Positions 5,832 to 48,672 of a stretch of 64,000 nt of DNA are shown piece by piece. The notes beneath the pieces were generated by a model. The model was given only the letters and a program-made list of their open reading frames with translations. It had not been told where the DNA came from and ran no database searches. Within the stretch, counting starts at the first letter, position 1. The number at the start of each line of letters is the position of its first letter. The DNA comes from Escherichia coli (GTDB lineage Bacteria; Pseudomonadota; Gammaproteobacteria; Enterobacterales; Enterobacteriaceae). The DNA lies in the NCBI RefSeq assembly GCF_003334335.1, contig NZ_QOWQ01000013.1, one strand, 5' to 3'. The translations under genes and the position numbers were made by a program.

Positions 5832-7128
<1,297 letters not shown>

Positions 7129-13944: not shown

Positions 13945-14140
<196 letters not shown>

Positions 14141-14244: not shown

Positions 14245-14331
14245 GCGAAGGTGGCGGAATTGGTAGACGCGCTAGCTTCAGGTGTTAGTGTCCTTACGGA
14301 CGTGGGGGTTCAAGTCCCCCCCCTCGCACCA
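14245..14331 (+). tRNA. leuQ: tRNA-Leu (anticodon CAG)
   Basis: GCGAAGGTGGCGGAATTGGTAGACGCGCTAGCTTCAGGTGTTAGTGTCCTTACGGACGTGGGGGTTCAAGTCCCCCCCCTCGCACCA; type II tRNA with long variable arm, CAG anticodon in CTTCAGGT loop, encoded CCA end. Single copy here; which of leuQ/P/V it corresponds to is not determinable. Confidence 0.9.
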
Positions 14332-37120: not shown

Positions 37121-37324
37121 ATGTTTGGTAACTTAGGACAGGCAAAAAAATATCTCGGCCAGGCGGCGAAGATGTTGATTGGCATTCCAGACTACGACAA
37201 CTACGTCGAGCATATGAAGACCAACCATCCCGACAAGCCGTACATGAGCTATGAAGAATTCTTCCGCGAACGCCAGAACGCGCGCTACGGCGGCGATGGT
37301 AAAGGCGGTATGCGCTGTTGTTAA
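37121..37324 (+). CDS. yjiX: DUF466-family small protein YjiX
   Basis: 67 aa [58 protein letters not shown]. Confidence 0.8.
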
Positions 37325-37334
37325 TGGAGAGAGC

Positions 37335-38291
37335 ATGAACCCGATTGCAGTTACCCTACTCACCGGTTTTTTAGGCGCGGGCAAAACCACCCTGCTGCGC
37401 CATATTCTTAATGAACAGCACGGCTACAAAATTGCCGTGATTGAAAACGAATTCGGCGAAGTCTCCGTTGATGATCAACTGATTGGCGATCGCGCCACGC
37501 AGATCAAAACGCTGACCAACGGCTGCATCTGTTGTTCGCGCTCCAACGAGCTGGAGGACGCGCTACTCGACCTGCTGGATAATCTCGACAAGGGCAATAT
37601 TCAGTTCGACCGTCTGGTCATTGAATGCACAGGCATGGCCGATCCCGGCCCGATTATTCAGACCTTTTTCTCCCATGAGATTTTATGCCAGCGTTACCTG
37701 CTGGACGGCGTGATTGCGCTGGTGGATGCGGTACATGCCGATGAGCAGATGAACCAGTTCACCATCGCCCAGTCACAGGTTGGCTACGCCGACCGTATTC
37801 TGCTGACTAAAACCGACGTCGCAGGTGAAGCAGAAAAACTGCGCGAACGCCTGGCACGCATCAACGCCCGCGCACCGGTCTACACCGTCACCCACGGCGA
37901 CATCGACCTGGGCCTGCTGTTCAACACCAACGGTTTTATGCTGGAAGAAAACGTCATCAGCACCAAACCGCGTTTCCACTTTATCGCGGATAAACAAAAC
38001 GATATTTCGTCGATTGTGGTGGAACTGGATTACCCGGTAGATATCAGCGAAGTTTCCCGCGTGATGGAAAACCTGCTGCTGGAATCGGCAGATAAACTGC
38101 TGCGTTACAAAGGGATGCTGTGGATTGACGGCGAACCTAACCGCCTGCTGTTCCAGGGCGTCCAGCGCCTCTACAGCGCCGACTGGGACAGGCCGTGGGG
38201 CGATGAAAAACCGCATAGCACGATGGTGTTTATCGGGATTCAGCTGCCGGAGGAAGAGATTCGGGCTGCGTTTGCGGGGTTGAGGAAGTAA
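37335..38291 (+). CDS. yjiA: COG0523-family metal-chaperone GTPase
   Basis: 318 aa from MNPIAVTLLTGFLGAGKTTLL (P-loop); CxCC motif (GCICCS). Confidence 0.9.
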   Translation: MNPIAVTLLTGFLGAGKTTLLRHILNEQHGYKIAVIENEFGEVSVDDQLIGDRATQIKTLTNGCICCSRSNELEDALLDLLDNLDKGNIQFDRLVIECTGMADPGPIIQTFFSHEILCQRYLLDGVIALVDAVHADEQMNQFTIAQSQVGYADRILLTKTDVAGEAEKLRERLARINARAPVYTVTHGDIDLGLLFNTNGFMLEENVISTKPRFHFIADKQNDISSIVVELDYPVDISEVSRVMENLLLESADKLLRYKGMLWIDGEPNRLLFQGVQRLYSADWDRPWGDEKPHSTMVFIGIQLPEEEIRAAFAGLRK

Positions 38292-38336: not shown

Positions 38337-39251
38337 TCACTCAAAATAGTCCATATCCAGTTTCGGCACCTTCAACAAACGTGAAGAAACCCCTACTTCG
38401 TTTTCGATCATTAAGTGCACCAGGCGTTCCCCATCAACCAACACCATACCCTCAACGGATTGGGCAAAGTCACGCGCCTGAGAAGTAAATCCAGAAGTGG
38501 TAATAAACACCCCACGTTTCGCTTTTTGCCCAGCCAGTGCGCCGTAAAATGCCTGTAATTCTGGCCTGCCTACAGTATTCTGCCAACGTTTTGCCTGAAC
38601 ATAAACTTTCTCCAGGCCAAGTTTATCAAGCGATATCACACCATCGATGCCACCATCTCCAGTACCGCCAACACGCTGCAAATCATCACGGTGGCCGCCA
38701 TACCCCAGGCGATGCAAAACATCCAGAACAATGACTTCAAAGCGCGAAGGAGAAACCTGCAATAAGTTTTCCAGAGCCTCATCAGCCACCGCATCACGAA
38801 GCTCTTTTAGCGCCTGATCTAACCGATCGTCCGGGCTGCTCTTTGCAAGTTCTTCATGATCGGGAGAGTCGGCTTTCGGATCTAAATCGACGGCATCCGG
38901 CCGTGACTTAAGTTTGACATTCACAAAATCGAAGGCCAGATGGTTCGTCTCCTGCTCCGTCATTGGCTGGGGATGAGACGCAACCCAGTCAAAACCCGCA
39001 GGAGTCAGGCACCATTTGCCACGCGACAAACTTTGCGACAACCCGGCACGTTTTAAACGGTCATGCGCCCAGCCTGCACGATTTTTATAAACAAGTTGTC
39101 CGCTGGTAATGACTTTCGCTCGCTGGCTGTCATCCAGTCCTAATGCATCCGCGGCAGCCTCATGAACATCACGCGCGGCTGCACCTTCCGGTTTTGTCGC
39201 CAGATAACGCAGAACAGGTTCAATAAATTTGTCATAGGTTGGAACCGTCAT
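38337..39251 (-). CDS. mrr: Type IV methylation-dependent restriction endonuclease Mrr
   Basis: 304 aa MTVPTYDKFIEPVLRYLATKPEGAAARDVHEAAADALGL; N-terminal winged helix plus C-terminal PD-(D/E)xK region. Confidence 0.9.
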   Translation of the reverse strand: MTVPTYDKFIEPVLRYLATKPEGAAARDVHEAAADALGLDDSQRAKVITSGQLVYKNRAGWAHDRLKRAGLSQSLSRGKWCLTPAGFDWVASHPQPMTEQETNHLAFDFVNVKLKSRPDAVDLDPKADSPDHEELAKSSPDDRLDQALKELRDAVADEALENLLQVSPSRFEVIVLDVLHRLGYGGHRDDLQRVGGTGDGGIDGVISLDKLGLEKVYVQAKRWQNTVGRPELQAFYGALAGQKAKRGVFITTSGFTSQARDFAQSVEGMVLVDGERLVHLMIENEVGVSSRLLKVPKLDMDYFE

Positions 39252-39438
39252 AGTACATCCTTGCAGAATCAGGTAGATGTTTTTCGGCTACTATAACACT
39301 ACCAAAATAGGCGAACACGTTAGAAATGAGTCAGTTGCTGTGACCGTGGTCATTGCCCGGAAAGGTACAGAAAGCTAAGATGAGATGTTATGGGCCTTAA
39401 ATATTTGGACAGGCCCGCACAGCAATGGATTAATAACA

Positions 39439-42400
39439 ATGATGAATAAATCCAATTTTGAATTCCTGAAGGGCGTCAACGACTTCACTTATGCCATCGC
39501 CTGTGCGGCGGAAAATAACTACCCGGATGATCCCAACACGACGCTGATTAAAATGCGTATGTTTGGCGAAGCCACAGCGAAACATCTTGGTCTGTTACTC
39601 AACATCCCCCCTTGTGAGAATCAACACGATCTCCTGCGCGAACTCGGCAAAATCGCCTTCGTTGATGACAACATCCTCTCTGTATTCCACAAATTACGCC
39701 GCATTGGTAACCAGGCGGTGCACGAATATCATAACGATCTCGACGATGCCCAGATGTGTCTGCGGCTCGGGTTCCGCCTGGCTGTCTGGTACTACCGTCT
39801 GGTCACCAAAGATTATGACTTCCCGGTGCCGGTGTTTGTGTTGCCGGAACGTGGCAAAAACCTCTATTACCAGGAAGTGCTGACGCTAAAACAACAGCTT
39901 GAACAGCAGGCGCGAGAAAAAGCGCAGACTCAGGCAGAAGTCGAAGCGCAACAGCAGAAGCTGGTTGCCCTGAACGGCTATATCGCCATTCTGGAAGGCA
40001 AACAGCAGGAAACAGAAGCGCAAACCCAGGCTCGCCTTGCGGCGCTGGAAGCACAGCTTGCCGAGAAGAACGCGGAACTGGCAAAACAGACCGAACAGGA
40101 ACGTAAGGCTTACCACAAAGAAATTACCGATCAGGCCATCAAGCGCACACTCAACCTTAGCGAAGAAGAGAGTCGCTTCCTGATTGACGCGCAACTGCGT
40201 AAAGCAGGCTGGCAGGCCGATAGCAAAACCCTGCGCTTCTCCAAAGGCGCGCGCCCGGAACCCGGCGTCAATAAAGCCATTGCCGAATGGCCGACCGGGA
40301 AAGATGAAACGGGTAATCAGGGCTTTGCGGATTATGTGCTGTTTGTCGGCCTCAAGCCCATCGCGGTGGTAGAGGCGAAACGTAAAAATATCGACGTTCC
40401 CGGCAAGCTCAATGAGTCGTATCGCTACAGCAAATGCTTCGATAATGGCTTCCTGCGGGAAACCTTGCTTGAGCATTACTCGCCGGATGAAGTGCATGAA
40501 GCGGTGCCGGAGTATGAAACCAGCTGGCAGGACACCAGCGGCCAACAACGGTTTAAAATCCCCTTCTGCTACTCGACCAACGGGCGCGAATACCGCGCAG
40601 CAATGAAAACTAAAAGCGGCATCTGGTATCGCGACGTGCGTGATACCCGTAATATGTCGAAAGCCTTACCCGAGTGGCATCGCCCGGAAGAGCTGCTGGA
40701 AATGCTCGGCAGTGAACCGCAAAAACAGAATCAGTGGTTTGCCGATAACCCTGGCATGAGCGAGCTGGGCCTGCGTTATTATCAGGAAGATGCCGTCCGC
40801 GCGGTTGAAAAGGCAATCGTCAAGGGTCAACAAGAGATCCTGCTGGCGATGGCGACCGGTACCGGTAAAACCCGTACGGCAATCGCCATGATGTTCCGCC
40901 TGATCCAGTCCCAGCGTTTTAAACGCATTCTCTTCCTTGTCGACCGCCGTTCTCTTGGCGAGCAGGCGCTGGGGGCGTTTGAAGATACGCGTATTAACGG
41001 CGACACTTTCAACAGCATTTTCGACATTAAAGGGCTGACGGATAAATTCCCCGAAGACAGCACCAAAATTCACGTTGCCACCGTACAGTCGCTGGTGAAA
41101 CGCACCCTGCAATCAGATGAACCGATGCCGGTGGCCCGTTACGACTGTATCGTCGTCGATGAAGCGCATCGCGGCTATATTCTCGATAAAGAGCAGACCG
41201 AAGGCGAACTGCAGTTTCGCAGCCAGCTGGATTATGTCTCTGCCTACCGTCGCATTCTCGATCACTTCGATGCGGTAAAAATCGCCCTCACCGCCACCCC
41301 GGCGCTGCATACTGTGCAGATTTTCGGCGAGCCGGTTTACCGTTATACCTACCGTACCGCGGTTATCGACGGTTTTCTGATCGACCAGGATCCGCCTATT
41401 CAGATCATCACCCGCAACGCGCAGGAGGGGGTTTATCTCTCCAAAGGCGAGCAGGTAGAGCGCATCAGCCCGCAGGGAGAAGTGATCAACGACACCCTGG
41501 AAGACGATCAGGATTTTGAGGTCGCCGACTTTAACCGTGGCCTGGTGATCCCGGCGTTTAACCGCGCCGTCTGTAACGAACTCACCAATTATCTTGACCC
41601 GACCGGGTCACAAAAAACGCTGGTCTTCTGCGTCACTAATGCCCATGCCGATATGGTGGTGGAAGAGCTGCGTGCCGCGTTCAAGAAAAAGTATCCGCAA
41701 CTGGAGCACGACGCGATCATCAAGATCACCGGTGATGCCGATAAAGACGCGCGCAAAGTGCAGACCATGATCACCCGCTTCAATAAAGAGCGGTTGCCCA
41801 ATATCGTGGTGACCGTCGACCTGCTGACGACCGGCGTCGATATTCCGTCGATCTGTAATATCGTGTTCCTGCGTAAAGTACGCAGCCGCATTCTGTACGA
41901 ACAGATGAAAGGCCGCGCCACGCGCTTATGCCCGGAGGTGAATAAAACTAGCTTTAAGATTTTTGACTGTGTCGATATCTACAGCACGCTGGAGAGCGTC
42001 GACACCATGCGTCCGGTGGTGGTGCGCCCGAAGGTGGAACTGCAAACGCTGGTCAACGAAATTACCGATTCAGAAACCTATAAAATCACCGAAGCGGATG
42101 GCCGCAGTTTTGCCGAGCACAGCCATGAACAACTGGTGGCGAAGCTCCAGCGCATCATCGGCCTGGCCACGTTTAACCGTGACCGCAGCGAAACGATAGA
42201 TAAACAGGTGCGTCGTCTGGATGAGCTATGCCAGGACGCGGCGGGGGTGAACTTTAACGGCTTCGCCTCGCGTCTGCGGGAAAAAGGACCGCACTGGAGC
42301 GCCGAAGTCTTTAACAAACTGCCTGGCTTTATCGCCCGTCTGGAAAAGCTGAAAACCGATATCAACAATCTGAATGATGCGCCGATCTTCCTCGATATCG

Positions 42401-42951
42401 ACGATGAAGTGGTGAGTGTAAAATCGCTGTACGGTGATTACGACACACCGCAGGATTTCCTCGAAGCCTTTGACTCGCTGGTGCAACGTTCCCCGAACGC
42501 GCAACCGGCATTGCAGGCGGTGATCAATCGCCCGCGCGATCTCACCCGTAAAGGGCTGGTCGAGCTACAGGAGTGGTTTGACCGCCAGCACTTTGAGGAA
42601 TCTTCCCTGCGCAAAGCATGGAAAGAGACGCGCAATGAAGATATCGCCGCCCGGCTGATTGGTCATATTCGCCGCGCTGCGGTGGGCGATGCGCTGAAAC
42701 CGTTTGAGGAACGTGTCGATCACGCGCTGACGCGTATCAAGGGCGAAAACGACTGGAGCAGCGAGCAATTAAGCTGGCTCGATCGTTTAGCGCAGGCGCT
42801 GAAAGAGAAAGTGGTGCTCGACGACGATGTCTTCAAAACCGGCAACTTCCACCGTCGCGGCGGGAAGGCGATGCTGCAAAGAACCTTTGACGATAATCTC
42901 GATACCCTGCTGGGCAAATTCAGCGATTACATCTGGGACGAGCTCGCCTGA
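39439..42951 (+). CDS. hsdR: Type I restriction enzyme R subunit (EcoKI-like, family IA)
   Basis: 1170 aa from MMNKSNFEFLKGVNDFTYAIACAAENNYPDD; DEAD-box motifs (AMATGTGKT, VVDEAH). Confidence 0.95.
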   Translation: MMNKSNFEFLKGVNDFTYAIACAAENNYPDDPNTTLIKMRMFGEATAKHLGLLLNIPPCENQHDLLRELGKIAFVDDNILSVFHKLRRIGNQAVHEYHNDLDDAQMCLRLGFRLAVWYYRLVTKDYDFPVPVFVLPERGKNLYYQEVLTLKQQLEQQAREKAQTQAEVEAQQQKLVALNGYIAILEGKQQETEAQTQARLAALEAQLAEKNAELAKQTEQERKAYHKEITDQAIKRTLNLSEEESRFLIDAQLRKAGWQADSKTLRFSKGARPEPGVNKAIAEWPTGKDETGNQGFADYVLFVGLKPIAVVEAKRKNIDVPGKLNESYRYSKCFDNGFLRETLLEHYSPDEVHEAVPEYETSWQDTSGQQRFKIPFCYSTNGREYRAAMKTKSGIWYRDVRDTRNMSKALPEWHRPEELLEMLGSEPQKQNQWFADNPGMSELGLRYYQEDAVRAVEKAIVKGQQEILLAMATGTGKTRTAIAMMFRLIQSQRFKRILFLVDRRSLGEQALGAFEDTRINGDTFNSIFDIKGLTDKFPEDSTKIHVATVQSLVKRTLQSDEPMPVARYDCIVVDEAHRGYILDKEQTEGELQFRSQLDYVSAYRRILDHFDAVKIALTATPALHTVQIFGEPVYRYTYRTAVIDGFLIDQDPPIQIITRNAQEGVYLSKGEQVERISPQGEVINDTLEDDQDFEVADFNRGLVIPAFNRAVCNELTNYLDPTGSQKTLVFCVTNAHADMVVEELRAAFKKKYPQLEHDAIIKITGDADKDARKVQTMITRFNKERLPNIVVTVDLLTTGVDIPSICNIVFLRKVRSRILYEQMKGRATRLCPEVNKTSFKIFDCVDIYSTLESVDTMRPVVVRPKVELQTLVNEITDSETYKITEADGRSFAEHSHEQLVAKLQRIIGLATFNRDRSETIDKQVRRLDELCQDAAGVNFNGFASRLREKGPHWSAEVFNKLPGFIARLEKLKTDINNLNDAPIFLDIDDEVVSVKSLYGDYDTPQDFLEAFDSLVQRSPNAQPALQAVINRPRDLTRKGLVELQEWFDRQHFEESSLRKAWKETRNEDIAARLIGHIRRAAVGDALKPFEERVDHALTRIKGENDWSSEQLSWLDRLAQALKEKVVLDDDVFKTGNFHRRGGKAMLQRTFDDNLDTLLGKFSDYIWDELA

Positions 42952-43027
42952 CACGGTATCATTCCCGGCAATTTCTTCTTCTGCGGCCCCGAACATGCGG
43001 GCCGCTGCTTAATTTACGGAACTCACA

Positions 43028-44617
43028 ATGAACAATAACGATCTGGTCGCGAAGCTGTGGAAGCTGTGCGACAACCTGCGCGATGGCGGCGTTTCCTATC
43101 AAAACTATGTCAATGAACTCGCCTCGCTGCTGTTTTTGAAAATGTGTAAAGAGACCGGGCAGGAAGCGGAATACCTGCCGGAAGGCTACCGCTGGGATGA
43201 CCTGAAATCCCGCATCGGCCAGGAGCAGTTGCAGTTCTACCGTAACCTGCTGGTACATCTGGGCGCCGACAATCAAAAGCTGGTGCAGGCGGTGTTCCAG
43301 AACGTCAACACCACCATTACCCAGCCAAAACAGTTGACCGAACTGGTCAGCAATATGGATTCACTGGACTGGTACAACGGTGCGCACGGTAAGTCGCGCG
43401 ATGACTTCGGCGATATGTACGAAGGGTTGTTGCAGAAGAACGCGAACGAAACCAAGTCTGGCGCGGGCCAGTACTTCACCCCGCGTCCGCTGATTAAAAC
43501 CATTATTCATCTGCTGAAACCGCAGCCGCGTGAAGTAGTGCAGGACCCGGCAGCAGGTACAGCGGGCTTTTTGATTGAAGCCGACCGCTACGTTAAGTCG
43601 CAAACCAATGATCTGGACGACCTTGATGGCGACACGCAGGATTTCCAGATCCACCGCGCGTTTATCGGCCTCGAACTGGTGCCTGGCACCCGTCGTCTGG
43701 CGCTGATGAACTGCCTGCTGCACGATATTGAAGGCAACCTCGACCACGGCGGCGCAATCCGTCTGGGCAACACCCTGGGTAGCGATGGTGAAAACCTGCC
43801 AAAGGCGCATATTGTCGCCACTAACCCGCCGTTTGGCAGCGCCGCAGGCACCAACATTACCCGCACCTTTGTCCACCCGACCAGCAACAAACAGTTGTGC
43901 TTTATGCAGCATATTATCGAAACGCTGCATCCCGGCGGTCGTGCGGCGGTGGTGGTGCCGGATAACGTGCTGTTTGAAGGCGGCAAAGGCACCGACATCC
44001 GTCGTGACCTGATGGATAAGTGTCATCTGCACACCATTCTGCGTCTGCCGACCGGTATTTTTTACGCGCAGGGCGTGAAAACCAACGTGCTGTTCTTTAC
44101 CAAAGGGACGGTGGCAAATCCGCATCAGGATAAGAACTGTACTGATGACGTGTGGGTGTATGACCTGCGGACCAATATGCCGAGCTTCGGCAAGCGCACG
44201 CCGTTTACCGACGAGCATTTGCAGCCGTTTGAGCGCGTATATGGCGAAAACCCGCACGGCTTAAGCCCGCGCACGGAAGGGGAATGGAGTTTTAACGCCG
44301 AAGAGACGGAAGTTGCCGACAGCGAAGAGAACAAAAATACCGATCAGCATCTGGCTACCAGCCGCTGGCGCAAGTTCAGCCGCGAGTGGATCCGCACCGC
44401 GAAATCCGATTCGCTGGATATCTCCTGGTTAAAAGATAAAGACAGTATTGATGCTGACAGCCTGCCGGAGCCGGATGTATTAACGGCAGAAGCGATGGGC
44501 GAGCTGGTACAGGCATTGGGTGAACTGGATGCGCTGATGCGTGAACTGGGGGCGAGCGATGAGGCGGATGCGCAGCGTCAATTGCTGGAAGAAGCGTTTG
44601 GTGGGGTGAAGGAATGA
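43028..44617 (+). CDS. hsdM: Type I restriction-modification N6-adenine methyltransferase M subunit (EcoKI-like)
   Basis: 529 aa MNNNDLVAKLWKLCDNLRDGGVSYQNYVNELASLLFLKMC; NPPF catalytic motif (VATNPPFG). Confidence 0.95.
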   Translation: MNNNDLVAKLWKLCDNLRDGGVSYQNYVNELASLLFLKMCKETGQEAEYLPEGYRWDDLKSRIGQEQLQFYRNLLVHLGADNQKLVQAVFQNVNTTITQPKQLTELVSNMDSLDWYNGAHGKSRDDFGDMYEGLLQKNANETKSGAGQYFTPRPLIKTIIHLLKPQPREVVQDPAAGTAGFLIEADRYVKSQTNDLDDLDGDTQDFQIHRAFIGLELVPGTRRLALMNCLLHDIEGNLDHGGAIRLGNTLGSDGENLPKAHIVATNPPFGSAAGTNITRTFVHPTSNKQLCFMQHIIETLHPGGRAAVVVPDNVLFEGGKGTDIRRDLMDKCHLHTILRLPTGIFYAQGVKTNVLFFTKGTVANPHQDKNCTDDVWVYDLRTNMPSFGKRTPFTDEHLQPFERVYGENPHGLSPRTEGEWSFNAEETEVADSEENKNTDQHLATSRWRKFSREWIRTAKSDSLDISWLKDKDSIDADSLPEPDVLTAEAMGELVQALGELDALMRELGASDEADAQRQLLEEAFGGVKE

Positions 44618-45963
44618 GTGCGGGGAAATTGCCGGAGGGGTGGGTTGAAACCTACCTTTCTGAAATATGTAGTAAACCACAATATGGTTATACAACTAAG
44701 TCGAGCTTTACAGGTAATGTAAAATTTTTAAGAACTACAGATATTACTAAAGGTACTGTGGATTGGTCCACTGTACCTTATTGTTTGCAAAATCCTGATG
44801 ATATACTTAAATATCAGCTTCAAGATCGAGATATTGTTATATCCCGGGCTGGTTCCGTAGGTTTTAGTTTTTTAGTAAAAAACCCACCGAATAATGCTGT
44901 CTTTGCTTCGTACCTGATCAGATTCAAACCTTTTGATAATATTTCAGAGCTTTACTTGAAGCGTTTTTTAGAGTCCGGCAACTATTGGGTTCAGCTTGCC
45001 TCTATGTCGGCTGGAAATGCATTACAAAATGTAAATGCTCAAAAATTATCCACGCTTATAGTACCAATTCCTCCACTTGCCGAACAAAAAATCATCGCTG
45101 AAAAACTCGATACGCTGCTGGCGCAGGTAGAGAGCACCAAAGCACGTCTTGAGCAAATCCCACAAATCCTGAAACGTTTTCGTCAGGCGGTGCTATCTAG
45201 TGCTGTTAGCGGTAAGTTAATTGACAAAAGCTTCGAAAATAAATTAGAAAAGCTCAATTCGTTTGTATCTATAGATATTGGTAATGCGTTCAAAAGCTCA
45301 GAGTTTAGTGATGAAGGCGTTCCATTACTCCGAGGACAAAATATAGAACCCGGAGCATTACGTTGGGATGACACAAAAAAATTCCCAATAGATAAACTTC
45401 AAAAATATTCTCATTTATTTATTAATGAGGGCGATATTATATTAGCAATGGATCGCCCAATAATATCAAGCGGGTTAAAAATAGCTAAAGCCAAAAAAAG
45501 TGATCTTCCTTGCGTTCTGGTTCAACGAGTTGCCAGATTTAAAGATTTCGAAAATCTAATTCCTGACTATCTGTATTTGTTATTGAATGATGTGTCTTTT
45601 ATTAATTATATTCAACCAAATCAGACTGGTAGCGACATTCCGCATATCAGTGGAAAACAAATTTTAAACTTTGAGTGTAATGTCCCCTCTATCCCCGAAC
45701 AACGCGAAATCGTTCGCCGCGTCGAGCAACTCTTCGCCTACGCCGACACTATAGAAAAACAGGTTAACAACGCCTTAGCCCGCGTCAACAACCTGACGCA
45801 ATCCATCCTGGCAAAAGCGTTCCGTGGTGAGCTCACCGCCCAGTGGCGGGCCGAAAACCCGGAATTAATCAGCGGAGAAAACAGCGCCGCCGCGTTGCTG
45901 GAGAAAATCAAAGCTGAATGCGCAGCCAGCGGGGGTAAAAAAGCCTCGAGTAAAAAATCCTGA
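44614..45963 (+). CDS. hsdS: Type I R-M specificity subunit with EcoKI-type conserved framework but divergent target recognition domains
   Basis: 449 aa; conserved N-terminus (MSAGKLPEGWV), central (PIPPLAEQKIIAEKLDTLLAQV) and C-terminal (EIVRRVEQLFAYADTIEKQVNNALARV...) regions as in EcoKI HsdS from memory; the two intervening TRDs are AT-rich and different. ATGA start/stop overlap with hsdM. Confidence 0.9.
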   Translation: MSAGKLPEGWVETYLSEICSKPQYGYTTKSSFTGNVKFLRTTDITKGTVDWSTVPYCLQNPDDILKYQLQDRDIVISRAGSVGFSFLVKNPPNNAVFASYLIRFKPFDNISELYLKRFLESGNYWVQLASMSAGNALQNVNAQKLSTLIVPIPPLAEQKIIAEKLDTLLAQVESTKARLEQIPQILKRFRQAVLSSAVSGKLIDKSFENKLEKLNSFVSIDIGNAFKSSEFSDEGVPLLRGQNIEPGALRWDDTKKFPIDKLQKYSHLFINEGDIILAMDRPIISSGLKIAKAKKSDLPCVLVQRVARFKDFENLIPDYLYLLLNDVSFINYIQPNQTGSDIPHISGKQILNFECNVPSIPEQREIVRRVEQLFAYADTIEKQVNNALARVNNLTQSILAKAFRGELTAQWRAENPELISGENSAAALLEKIKAECAASGGKKASSKKS

Positions 45964-45975
45964 TCATTATTTTCT

Positions 45976-46003
45976 GGCGCACCTTTCCGGTGCGCTTTTT
46001 ATT
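45976..46003 (+). terminator. Rho-independent terminator after hsdS
   Basis: ggcgcacc-tttcc-ggtgcgc hairpin followed by tttttatt. Confidence 0.7.
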
Positions 46004-46097
46004 ATTTTACACCAATCATAACCCACACAAATATATTTAAATCATTCCAGAAATTGCCTATTTTATTCTATTTTTAGCTGGACTTTCCCTGTATTTA

Positions 46098-46113
46098 CTG
46101 ATGATATATCCAG
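46098..46113. promoter_or_regulatory. LexA (SOS) box upstream of symE
   Basis: CTGATGATATATCCAG fits CTG-N10-CAG with AT-rich centre (consensus CTGTATATATATACAG), about 80 bp upstream of the symE ATG. Confidence 0.65.
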
Positions 46114-46139
46114 GTATTTAGCGCGGTGCGGATGTGCGC

Positions 46140-46220
46140 CAACACACCCGCACCGCTAATCACAATCACTATTTATAGGGAATAGCAGTTATGACTGACA
46201 CGCATTCTATTGCACAACCG
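46140..46220 (-). ncRNA. symR: Probable SymR antisense sRNA (type I antitoxin) overlapping the symE 5' end
   Basis: Placement from the known K-12 arrangement, where SymR is encoded antisense across the symE ribosome-binding site and start codon; boundaries not determinable from sequence alone. Confidence 0.35.
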
Positions 46221-46532
46221 TTCGAAGCAGAAGTCTCCCCGGCAAATAACCGTCAATTAACCGTGAGTTATGCGAGTCGCTACCCGGATTACAGCCGTAT
46301 TCCCGCCATCACCCTGAAAGGTCAGTGGCTGGAAACCGCCGGTTTTGCTACCGGCACGGCGGTAGATGTCAAAGTGATGGAAGGCTGTATTGTCCTCACC
46401 GCCCAACCACCTGCCGCCGAAGAGAGCGAACTGATGCAGTCACTGCGCCAGGTGTGCAAACTGTCGGCGCGTAAACAAAAGCAGGTGCAGGAATTTATTG
46501 AGGTGATTGCCGGTAAACGAAAAGTCGCCTGA
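46191..46532 (+). CDS. symE: SOS-induced toxin SymE (AbrB/MazE-fold endoribonuclease-like)
   Basis: 113 aa [48 protein letters not shown]. Confidence 0.9.
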
Positions 46533-46540
46533 TACATTGA

Positions 46541-46570
46541 CCCGGTAGCGCCAGTGCTACCGGGTATTAT
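46541..46570. terminator. Bidirectional terminator between convergent symE and the GmrSD-like gene
   Basis: cccggtagc-gccagt-gctaccggg hairpin followed by tattatt. Confidence 0.6.
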
Positions 46571-46578
46571 TCGCCACG

Positions 46579-48672
46579 TTATACCAACGCGCTCTCCATC
46601 TGTTTTTCAAATGCCTGACGGATTAATCCCATAATGTAAGGAAGTTGTGCGAGGTCGCTGAAACCAATTTCTACATCGCCATTGCCCCAGCGCCCAACAT
46701 TTGTCACATCTTTGGCAATACCTTTCGGATCGACCAGTTCATGAAACTGCATATTAAGCGACAATCGCAGTCGGCTTTTTTGCGGCACAACATCAACAAA
46801 GTTCGTTTCCGCTTTAAACGCAATATAGAGCTTCAATACTTCCTGCGTGATCCCTGCGTCCAGGCGCATAACTTCATCGCGAAGATGATCGAATAACTCC
46901 CGACTATGCGAACCATCAGCAAGAAAAGGAAAATCATTCAGGCTGTAATTGGTTTTGTTTTCAGGCTTCCCCCGATAAACAGCTAAAACCTCTTCAGGAA
47001 GAGCAGGCGCTTGCCAGACCTGAATTGCAAGCTCTGCCAGACGATCGGCTCGGGCGTGAATGGCGGCTTCATCCCATTTTTCGCACTGTCCAAGACCGAT
47101 ATTCAAATAGAGCGGGCTATGTTTAAAGCCGTCTTCAATATCGCGTTTTTCCGCGAAAGGTCTGTCACTGTAGCGGGAGTTATAGCGCGTTAATGTGAGA
47201 TTCCCCAACGTATGCAACAGTTCTTTATGAATGCGTTGCCAGTCACTTCCCAGCTCTTCACGCCATTTAGCCGACAAATTTTCGTTCTGCGGCATAATAT
47301 GTTCAATCGTAAACTCTTCCACGCGCTCTCTGCGTTTATCGTTTTCCAGTCGTCGTAACCAGTAACTGCGACTGCGGAAGTTATAGAGATCGCGAACTTT
47401 TAATTCCCGTTTAAATTCATCATCGTTGGGGAAACGACGATATGAAGGTAGATTCAGAAAATGTACCTGAATACTTTCCAGATAATTTTCTTTATTAATG
47501 ACCTTATAAAAAGTAGCAAACGTCTTGTTAAGAGAATTTGTCGGAATCGCACATACTGCACGGCGGAAAACATAAGATTCAATTAAACGAATTATGTTCA
47601 GGAAATCTTCTTGAGACAAAACGCCATTTTTATAGTCATGATAAAGCGCCAGTAAGAAAGGATACGCCACATCGACCTTTAACTCGCGCAAATCCTGAAA
47701 AGCCGTAGCAAGCGATTTGTCACTTTCTTTTCCCAATGCCATTGCACAGTAATACTCCGCGTAGATGTGAATATCTTCAACCAGCCGATCTACGCCTTTT
47801 TCAGCAACACTCTGGCTGCGGGCATGGAGTTTAAATGCCTCATAGACTTCATCTGTCCGAGGGATCTCCCCTGTTTTTACCGTCAGATAATGACGCATAA
47901 AACTGTCAAAATATTCGCTGTAACCTTGCTGACCAAACGCGACTTCCATTGGACGCCAGTGATCTTCATACAACCGGGTTTGATGCTCTGGTTCGAGGCC
48001 CATCAGAATAAAATTGCGCACCAGATCGGCCTGACTTAACGCCTTACCGGTGGAGTTCATACTTTCAAAAATCAGTTGCGGATTATCCTGACCACGATTA
48101 AGCGCCACATCGACAATTAATAATTTTGCTAACCCACGACATAAGGGAATCAAATCATCCCCGAGTTTGGCAATTTGTTCATCAAAGAAAGTAAAGTTTT
48201 CCATTATTCGATGGGAATAGTTTTCTGGCATTGGTCTTTGTTTTATTAACGCCAGCAAACTGTCTTTATCAGTCTCGGTCAGCAGTAATTTAAATCCTTT
48301 CTCGCCGGACTCATAAGGATTGAGTAAATAATAATTACGCAATTTCATTGCTGAAAAGCCATCAAAAACTTCGTCTTCGCCAAGATGACGCGATAAAGCC
48401 TCAATCAGCAACATTGCGGTCGTCAGCCTTTGTTGACCATCAATGACCAGTAACGGAGAAATACCAGAAACCTGATACAACCCCTGCTCAATATAAACAA
48501 CCGAACCGATAAAATGCGCTGATATATCGTCACGCTTTCCGGCACGAATGATGTCGTCCCAAAGTTGCCGACATTGTTGTTCTGTCCATGAATAAGTCCG
48601 TTGATAAATGGGAATAACAAACTGCTGCGAACGTTTTAAAAAATCGAGTAGGCGGGCTTCTGTAGCTTTCAT
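46579..48672 (-). CDS. DUF262-DUF1524 (GmrSD-like) putative modification-dependent type IV restriction nuclease with unassigned C-terminal extension
   Basis: 697 aa; N-terminal IPIYQRTYSW and LLVIDGQQRLTTAML (DUF262 DGQQR motif); EHIMPQN...LGNLTL (DUF1524 His-Me finger-like); about 140 further residues of unknown affinity; sits where I recall K-12 having mcrBC. Confidence 0.75.
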   Translation of the reverse strand: MKATEARLLDFLKRSQQFVIPIYQRTYSWTEQQCRQLWDDIIRAGKRDDISAHFIGSVVYIEQGLYQVSGISPLLVIDGQQRLTTAMLLIEALSRHLGEDEVFDGFSAMKLRNYYLLNPYESGEKGFKLLLTETDKDSLLALIKQRPMPENYSHRIMENFTFFDEQIAKLGDDLIPLCRGLAKLLIVDVALNRGQDNPQLIFESMNSTGKALSQADLVRNFILMGLEPEHQTRLYEDHWRPMEVAFGQQGYSEYFDSFMRHYLTVKTGEIPRTDEVYEAFKLHARSQSVAEKGVDRLVEDIHIYAEYYCAMALGKESDKSLATAFQDLRELKVDVAYPFLLALYHDYKNGVLSQEDFLNIIRLIESYVFRRAVCAIPTNSLNKTFATFYKVINKENYLESIQVHFLNLPSYRRFPNDDEFKRELKVRDLYNFRSRSYWLRRLENDKRRERVEEFTIEHIMPQNENLSAKWREELGSDWQRIHKELLHTLGNLTLTRYNSRYSDRPFAEKRDIEDGFKHSPLYLNIGLGQCEKWDEAAIHARADRLAELAIQVWQAPALPEEVLAVYRGKPENKTNYSLNDFPFLADGSHSRELFDHLRDEVMRLDAGITQEVLKLYIAFKAETNFVDVVPQKSRLRLSLNMQFHELVDPKGIAKDVTNVGRWGNGDVEIGFSDLAQLPYIMGLIRQAFEKQMESALV

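Follow-up and report, generated by a model that had tools for sequence, protein, structure and literature searches.

A complete symE/SymR locus next to a GmrSD-type gene in the ICR of Escherichia coli

Introduction

The closest described relative of the locus analysed here is the symE/SymR pair of Escherichia coli K-12. The K-12 symE operator is LexA-dependent, with an HI of 7.9 (PMC11228462, PMC1891008), and induction of symE is weak under some genotoxic treatments (PMC11228462). SymE is toxic when over-produced, is neutralised by the antisense RNA SymR and is turned over in a Lon-dependent manner (PMC1891008). Mutation of the symR promoter in K-12 raises SymE approximately seven-fold; the change of CATTCT to CACTCC inside symE abolishes SymR (Kawano et al., PMC1891008). 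As for its activity, SymE is a non-specific DNA-binding and nucleoid-condensing protein according to the summary of Thompson 2022 that is given in PMC11894785.

[quoted passage not shown] GmrSD homologues have been described to replace McrBC in the ICR (He et al. 2015, PMC4437046; 2025 EcoSal Plus review, PMC12707154), and the review also names symE-symR as one of the toxin-antitoxin systems found alongside the type I and type IV families (PMC12707154). Both the symE/SymR locus and its GmrSD-adjacent layout are already known.

Here, we analyse such a locus in a stretch of 64,000 nucleotides of E. coli DNA (hereafter, the window). We conclude with high confidence that it represents the canonical form of the chromosomal type I toxin-antitoxin locus symE/SymR in the E. 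coli ICR, that it is complete and that it presumably works as in K-12.

Results

symE is the only real ORF between hsdS and a GmrSD-type gene

The intergenic span 45964-46578 is flanked by hsdS (44614-45963, +) and a convergent gene encoding a protein of 697 aa, and it holds one real ORF, symE, in the same orientation as in the MG1655 annotation (Table 1). The encoded protein matches the NCBIfam equivalog NF010128, "endoribonuclease SymE", with 229.4 bits (cut-off 132) over residues 1-112 of 113, as well as Pfam SymE_toxin (PF08845; 8.5e-21), and it is 94% identical to K-12 SymE at the amino acid level with seven differences. Against relatives, dN/dS is 0.08-0.38 and symE is under purifying selection. 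These matches, together with that of SymR to Rfam, bear out the preliminary description of this DNA, in which a symE/SymR type I toxin-antitoxin locus with a LexA operator had been recognised. The same description referred to SymE as a toxin; this (endoribonuclease) label has been revised to that of a DNA-binding nucleoid protein in the summary in PMC11894785, and SymE is annotated in MG1655 as a nucleoid-associated protein. None of the PADLOC defence models matches SymE.

Among 5426 complete E. coli genomes, the best match to the symE locus has an identity of only 96.7%. We suspected a non-E. coli origin on this ground and ruled it out because the flanking 18 kb are 99.2% identical to E. coli 2014C-3075; thus, the divergence of the symE region is confined to the ICR. 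The dS between E. coli symE alleles is 0.10-0.18, which is several-fold above typical E. coli core-gene divergence. This divergence, and the lack of a complete genome with a match above 96.7%, are consistent with the ICR being a long-maintained polymorphic region.

Table 1. Features of the symE/SymR locus and its immediate surroundings (window coordinates)
Feature	Position	Strand	Basis
Intrinsic terminator of hsdS, GGCGCACC-TTTCC-GGTGCGCT then TTTTTATTATT	45976-45996	+	Terminator scan
Putative symE -35, TGGACT	46079-46084	+	Inferred; within conserved motif CTGGACTTT
LexA operator (SOS box), TACTGATGATATATCCAGGT	46096-46115	.	Best weight-matrix match; one base from K-12
SymR antisense RNA, 77 nt	46120-46196	-	Rfam RF01809, fold, covariation
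symE Shine-Dalgarno region, AGGGA (K-12 GGAG)	46177-46181	+	Read from sequence; K-12 alignment
symE CDS, 113 aa, intact	46191-46532	+	NCBIfam NF010128, Pfam SymE_toxin
SymR promoter within the symE ORF	46204-46232	-	Identity to K-12, conservation
10-bp GC-rich hairpin, convergent symE/GmrSD	46540-46565	.	Folding
Predicted single-chain GmrSD-family type IV restriction enzyme, 697 aa, intact	46579-48672	-	Pfam, PADLOC

A LexA operator overlaps the putative symE promoter

The 16-mer CTGATGATATATCCAG at 46098-46113, at which a LexA box ahead of symE had been proposed, is the CTG-N10-CAG core of a LexA operator. With 26 matches in the window versus 13 expected, the bare CTG-N10-CAG pattern is not discriminating, and it was therefore replaced by a scan with a symmetrised LexA weight matrix of 20 nt, which was derived from 26 E. 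coli SOS boxes and excluded the symE box. With this matrix, the operator in Table 1 scores 16.7 bits, which is the best score in the 64 kb and is followed by 11.3 bits for the next best site; for reference, the training boxes score from 12.1 to 26.6 bits and the K-12 symE box 17.9 bits. A site scoring as well is found in 7% of shuffled 64-kb windows. By the same scan of the window, no LexA-like site was detected at the restriction genes.

The operator can be aligned with the K-12 symE box over its full length, the only difference being a single A-to-C change (ATACAG to ATCCAG); this places it 1.2 bits below the K-12 box, which we count against the canonical reading. The CCAG form is that of most Escherichia loci examined, including those of O157, ATCC 25922, E. 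whittamii and E. albertii, and -CCAG ends are found in bona fide SOS boxes. For a broader comparison, we used 41 species-level loci, which encode SymE relatives down to 54% identity. In almost all informative loci, CTG-N10-CAG lies 93-100 nt 5' of the ATG while its interior varies; on sequence grounds, this positional constancy with a variable interior amounts to a phylogenetic footprint. The operator is an SOS box of the TACTG(TA)5CAGTA type, as expected for the LexA regulon, at the putative symE promoter.

The putative -35 element of symE is part of a motif (46078-46086) that is kept in nearly all 41 loci although the DNA further upstream diverges. With a spacer of 18 nt, this element would place the -10 at approximately 46103-46108 in the LexA box and the start site near 46115. 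As a consequence of this overlap, LexA would occlude the symE promoter. A sigma-70 consensus scan of 45900-46700 picked up neither the symE nor the SymR promoter, its sole match being at 46606-46635 inside the GmrSD gene. Both promoters have weak -35 elements and are missed by the scan for this reason, which also counts against the canonical reading; in its place, we use the identity to the promoter verified in K-12 and the conservation across loci.

SymR covers the translation start of symE and is conserved as a structure

SymR matches Rfam RF01809 with 94.3 bits (gathering score 61) over model positions 1-77 of 77 and is the top RNA match of the entire window in the Rfam scan. The expectation that SymR is encoded on the minus strand was correct, while the range suggested for it, 46140-46230, was slightly off from the position at which Rfam places the RNA. 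The complementarity of SymR extends over almost all of the symE 5' UTR, takes in the Shine-Dalgarno region and reaches 6 nt into the CDS, so that the 5' end of SymR overlaps codons 1-2 of symE; its span (46196 down to 46120) stops 5 nt from the LexA 20-mer. The Shine-Dalgarno sequence of symE lies opposite the loop of SymR hairpin 1; its AGGG is weaker than GGAG in K-12, which we also count against the canonical reading.

SymR folds into two hairpins with an MFE of -40.1 kcal/mol (z = -5.9). When the 41 loci are aligned on the Rfam structure, 92% of the cells are paired versus approximately 23-50% with the partners slid, and compensatory changes are present in 11 pairs (8 of 14 in helix 2). 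By count from the pairing table, G-U pairs make up approximately 19% of the alignment cells. Because these would be C-A on the mRNA strand, the structural constraint falls on the SymR strand. The second hairpin is strong and without a U-tract; the terminator scan calls no terminator for SymR, and none of the classical type is present. A plus-strand match to the Enterococcus Ref66 family of Rfam was rejected as a chance overlap with the SymR hairpins, having 24.6 bits against a gathering score of 92.

The SymR promoter consists of a -10, TAGAAT (reverse complement of 46204-46209), and a weak -35-like element, TTCTGC (reverse complement of 46227-46232), with a spacer of 17 nt and a start site at 46196. 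The region 46191-46290 is identical to K-12, and the CATTCT hexamer that was mutated in K-12 lies at 46203-46208 here. In approximately 40 loci, the -10 stays TAGAAT or TACAAT and ACTTCTG is invariant despite Ser to Cys and His to Asp/Asn changes in the protein. Because these elements are kept while the encoded residues change, we conclude that the promoter itself is under selection.

Upstream, the intrinsic terminator of hsdS folds at -14.6 kcal/mol and is conserved in K-12; it shields symE from hsdRMS read-through and thus makes symE its own transcription unit. Downstream, where symE and the GmrSD gene converge, a hairpin of -20.2 kcal/mol on the plus and -19.6 kcal/mol on the minus strand is a probable shared bidirectional terminator with weak T-tracts; it is absent from the calls of the terminator scan because it lacks a T-run. 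Thus, the identity, integrity and conservation of all cis elements and of the ORF are established, as far as sequence can establish them.

The neighbouring GmrSD-type gene and the ICR of the window

The preliminary description had noted a GmrSD-like neighbour, and this gene proved genuine: the predicted protein carries both GmrSD domains in one chain, GmrSD_N (DUF262; 9.4e-35) and GmrSD_C (DUF1524; 1.5e-26), with an extra C-terminal DUF5655 (4e-14), and its ORF is open over 697 codons. It has a DGQQR motif at residue 78 and an HNH-type EH...N motif at approximately residue 457, and matches the PADLOC models Orf5, HEC-06, mREase_IV and SspE. At the NCBIfam thresholds, no model matches the GmrSD protein, YjiS or Mrr.

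The gene order of the window is yjiA (37251-38291), mrr, hsdR, hsdM, hsdS, symE, GmrSD, yjiS, yjiR and rpn, as in the K-12, O157 and ATCC 25922 loci, and the type I system, hsdRMS, belongs to family IA; the window thus has the arrangement of the ICR. In E. coli 2014C-3075 (L046), the strain with the 99.2% identical flanks and the closest relative in backbone, the ICR instead contains BrnTA, a PD-(D/E)XK-type restriction endonuclease, type ID hsdMSR and a symE that abuts yjiS. Over window positions 38337-48672, the comparison with this strain clearly reveals an exchange of cassettes in which symE was kept.

The GmrSD-family ORF is also open over 697 codons in the O157:H7 locus (L004, 9521-11614) and in loci L005 and L010. 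RefSeq annotates the O157 copy as a 387-aa CDS plus a pseudogene fragment, "DUF262, incomplete", and, judged by feature names, most E. coli copies are annotated as a 387-aa CDS and a fragment. This split annotation looks like an artefact and not a real disruption. In strain PS2Canimalfeces12, the GmrSD gene is genuinely interrupted by IS1.

Regarding the type IA system itself, HsdR and HsdM are 97-99% identical to their K-12 counterparts. HsdS shares only 41-50% identity with the type IA HsdS proteins sampled for comparison (44% with that of EcoKI) and scores 558 bits, below the NCBIfam equivalog cut-off of 662; the system probably differs in the sequence that it recognises, and this specificity may be an uncharacterised one. 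The predicted hsdR ORF (39385-42951, +) starts 18 codons upstream (MLWALNIW...) of the K-12 start MMNKSNFEFLKG. The real start is probably the one annotated in K-12 (3513-nt CDS), at approximately 39439.

symE follows type I operons of three families

Among the 5426 complete E. coli genomes, symE is present in approximately 2870 and lacking in approximately 47%. The junction of symE with GmrSD is found in 1286 genomes, O157:H7 included, and the K-12-type junction of symE with mcrB in 590; the remaining symE-bearing genomes include a form in which symE directly abuts yjiS. Calling the restriction locus of the window remodelled, as had been done, was thus a K-12-centred view, and the layout has been published (PMC4437046, PMC12707154). 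The comparative loci agree with the observation that the symE module keeps its place beside a GmrSD-like type IV gene rather than McrBC: symE is in the same position across three E. coli ICR configurations and in several other genera. The proposal that symE is a stable part of this island holds in a relative sense, given the genomes that lack the gene.

On the upstream side, hsdS(IA)-symE junctions occur in 916 genomes, hsdS(IB)-symE in 798 and hsdR(ID)-symE in 963, which together account for approximately 93% of the approximately 2871 symE-bearing E. coli genomes. Thus, the constant partner of symE is the upstream type I R-M operon and not the downstream type IV gene. Adjacency of a type I system and symE is also seen in Pseudocitrobacter, Pantoea, Raoultella, Citrobacter, E. 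albertii and E. whittamii. Approximately 20 of the 41 species-level loci lack a recognisable type I gene within 6 kb of symE.

Homology among ICR variants spans from approximately 46059-46070 to approximately 46508-46532, with unrelated DNA on both sides; it starts just upstream of the symE -35, approximately 10 nt before the conserved motif CTGGACTTT, and ends in the last symE codons. In a comparison of 11 alleles, symE alleles do not cluster by either flanking cassette, and the allele of a type ID locus without a type IV gene is closest, at 97.5%, to an allele of a type IA locus. A role of symE as a junction or anchor in the exchange of cassettes accounts for this pattern no less well than a functional partnership does.

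Several of the sampled loci have features of their own. In two Pantoea genomes (L013, 1869-2030; L014, 5581-5771), only the last approximately 50 codons of a type IA hsdS precede symE, at 82-85% amino acid identity, and hsdM and hsdR are absent; this suggests that symE either moved together with the 3' end of a type I operon or outlasted it. Citrobacter sp. wls619 (L029/L032) and On2M (L027/L035) each have two diverged symE paralogues approximately 30-36 kb apart on the same contig, and both copies come with a LexA-type box and a SymR-like antisense region of their own. The contigs of L007 and L010 are labelled "MAG: Bacillota bacterium" and carry E. coli-type ICR DNA, with HsdM, HsdR and GmrSD proteins that share 97-100% identity with those of E. 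coli; these contigs are almost certainly Enterobacteriaceae sequence assigned to the wrong bin.

Further observations in the window

Outside the ICR, approximately six tandem REP/BIME-type elements with a spacing of approximately 100 bp are present at 5869-6353 (Rfam naRNA4, RF02564; 64-79 bits), and one more naRNA4-type copy is found near rsmC at 14023-14105. A 186-aa ORF at 5998-6558 that overlaps the array is probably spurious. A single tRNA-Leu(CAG) gene is located at 14245-14331 (+), where the closest complete genome has three tandem tRNA-Leu genes between rsmC and fhuF, which suggests either that recombination between the repeats has caused a deletion or that the repeats were collapsed in the assembly.

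Discussion

The data reported here confirm a textbook locus and correct a K-12-centred impression of its surroundings, since in E. coli symE is found beside GmrSD more often than beside mcrB. By analogy with the experiments in K-12, LexA binding, SymR expression, translational repression and SymE activity are all to be expected at this locus, and we suggest the following model for its regulation. In an undamaged cell, LexA on its operator overlapping the symE promoter would block transcription, while SymR would be made constitutively from the promoter inside the symE ORF. Because the leader, ribosome-binding site and start codon of symE have a perfect complement in SymR, translation of symE mRNA would be blocked, and Lon protease, as in K-12, may also remove SymE protein. 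Upon DNA damage, cleavage of LexA would cause symE mRNA to rise and some SymE would be made. SymE, with a predicted AbrB/MazE fold, would be growth-inhibitory if over-produced; its activity, first thought to be that of an RNase, would be the non-specific DNA binding and nucleoid condensation that are now reported. With its position directly downstream of type IA hsdRMS and convergent with a GmrSD-type gene, the locus represents a common and described ICR configuration.

The two differences that we count against the canonical reading raise the question of whether the A-to-C change in the operator or the weaker Shine-Dalgarno sequence has uncoupled symE from the SOS response or silenced it. The operator's lower score relative to K-12, the AGGG in place of GGAG and the modest best match of the locus among the complete genomes could be read in this way. 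By contrast, the symE ORF is intact with a low dN/dS, the CCAG operator recurs in the O157, ATCC 25922, E. whittamii and E. albertii loci, and SymR and its promoter are fully conserved. We consider such a decay highly improbable.

The quantitative value of this analysis lies in the linkage counts: symE is missing in nearly half of the genomes and is otherwise almost always behind a type I operon, which can be of any of three families, and symE alleles are shuffled relative to both flanks. These counts sharpen an old question, namely whether symE is a companion of type I restriction, a recombination anchor or a selfish passenger. We tentatively entertain, as a possibility short of an even chance, that the approximately 450-bp symE/SymR cassette (from approximately 46059/46070 to approximately 46508-46517) persists as a conserved junction between type I and type IV genes, which offers homology for exchange and is not an aid to restriction; it is perhaps also a selfish, addiction-like element. 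The homology limits at the edges of symE, with unrelated DNA on either side, are in line with this idea, as are the variety of operons that symE follows (IA, IB or ID) and of genes that it precedes (GmrSD, McrBC or nothing), the lack of clustering of alleles by either flank, and the strain with a 99.2% identical backbone and a different ICR that still has symE. Moreover, in a proposal by Kawano et al., SymE modules are selfish and share their locations with mobile DNA. However, the allele comparison covers just 11 alleles and approximately 47% of E. coli genomes manage without symE, while the purifying selection on SymE and the retention of the LexA box, the SymR structure and its promoter across genera point to selection on function.

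A function in restriction was envisaged in the preliminary description, in which symE was considered as a back-up when restriction or DNA damage occurs. In a fuller form of this idea, SOS-induced SymE would partner the restriction systems and arrest the cell, or protect the nucleoid, after restriction enzymes have damaged the host chromosome or phage DNA has escaped restriction. We regard this speculative reading as unlikely. It would account for the position of approximately 93% of E. coli symE genes immediately downstream of a type I R-M operon of one of three families and for the repetition of this adjacency in Pseudocitrobacter, Pantoea, Raoultella, Citrobacter, E. albertii and E. whittamii; in addition, symE-family genes recur in Pseudomonas defence hotspots, for which a role in defence or addiction has been suggested (PMC10250203). 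However, SymE matches no PADLOC defence model, symE has its own promoter behind the hsdS terminator and is not co-transcribed with hsd, the restriction genes are without a LexA-like site, and approximately 20 of the 41 loci have symE without a recognisable type I gene within 6 kb. Moreover, a shared hotspot or a recombination anchor explains the adjacency equally well. Because so many E. coli symE genes are directly behind an IA, IB or ID operon, symE/SymR could still be functionally tied to type I R-M specifically, with SOS-induced SymE acting as a safeguard that compacts or coats the chromosome or arrests the cell; this, too, we regard as unlikely. If true, SymE would serve the ICR as an arm for host protection or abortive infection once unmodified host DNA comes under attack by type I enzymes or an infection sets off the SOS response.

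Compared to known systems, the locus is overall most similar to K-12 symE/SymR (yjiW/RyjC; Kawano, Aravind & Storz 2007; RF01809; PF08845), with which it shares the order of hsdS, terminator, LexA box and symE/SymR, a 77-nt SymR with two hairpins, the position of the LexA box, and a SymR promoter and first 100 nt of symE that are 100% identical. It differs from K-12 in four bases in the loop of SymR hairpin 1, which correspond to the Shine-Dalgarno region of the mRNA, in a G for A that closes an extra G-C pair in hairpin 2, and in the downstream neighbour, which is GmrSD here and mcrBC in K-12. With the GmrSD variant of the ICR (PMC4437046, PMC12707154), the window shares the order yjiA, mrr, hsdRMS, "endoribonuclease" (symE), GmrSD homologue with DUF262 and DUF1524, yjiS, yjiR and rpn, while its exact allele is found in none of the complete genomes searched, the best matches being 96.7% for symE and 98.0% for GmrSD. 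The tisB/istR-1 and dinQ/agrB systems likewise combine a LexA-repressed toxin gene with a constitutive small RNA that blocks translation (PMC4147584). However, the toxins of these systems are small membrane peptides, in contrast to the 113-aa SymE, which has an AbrB fold and binds nucleic acids. IstR-1 is encoded divergently and is not fully antisense, while SymR is a true cis-antisense RNA that covers the leader and the start codon.
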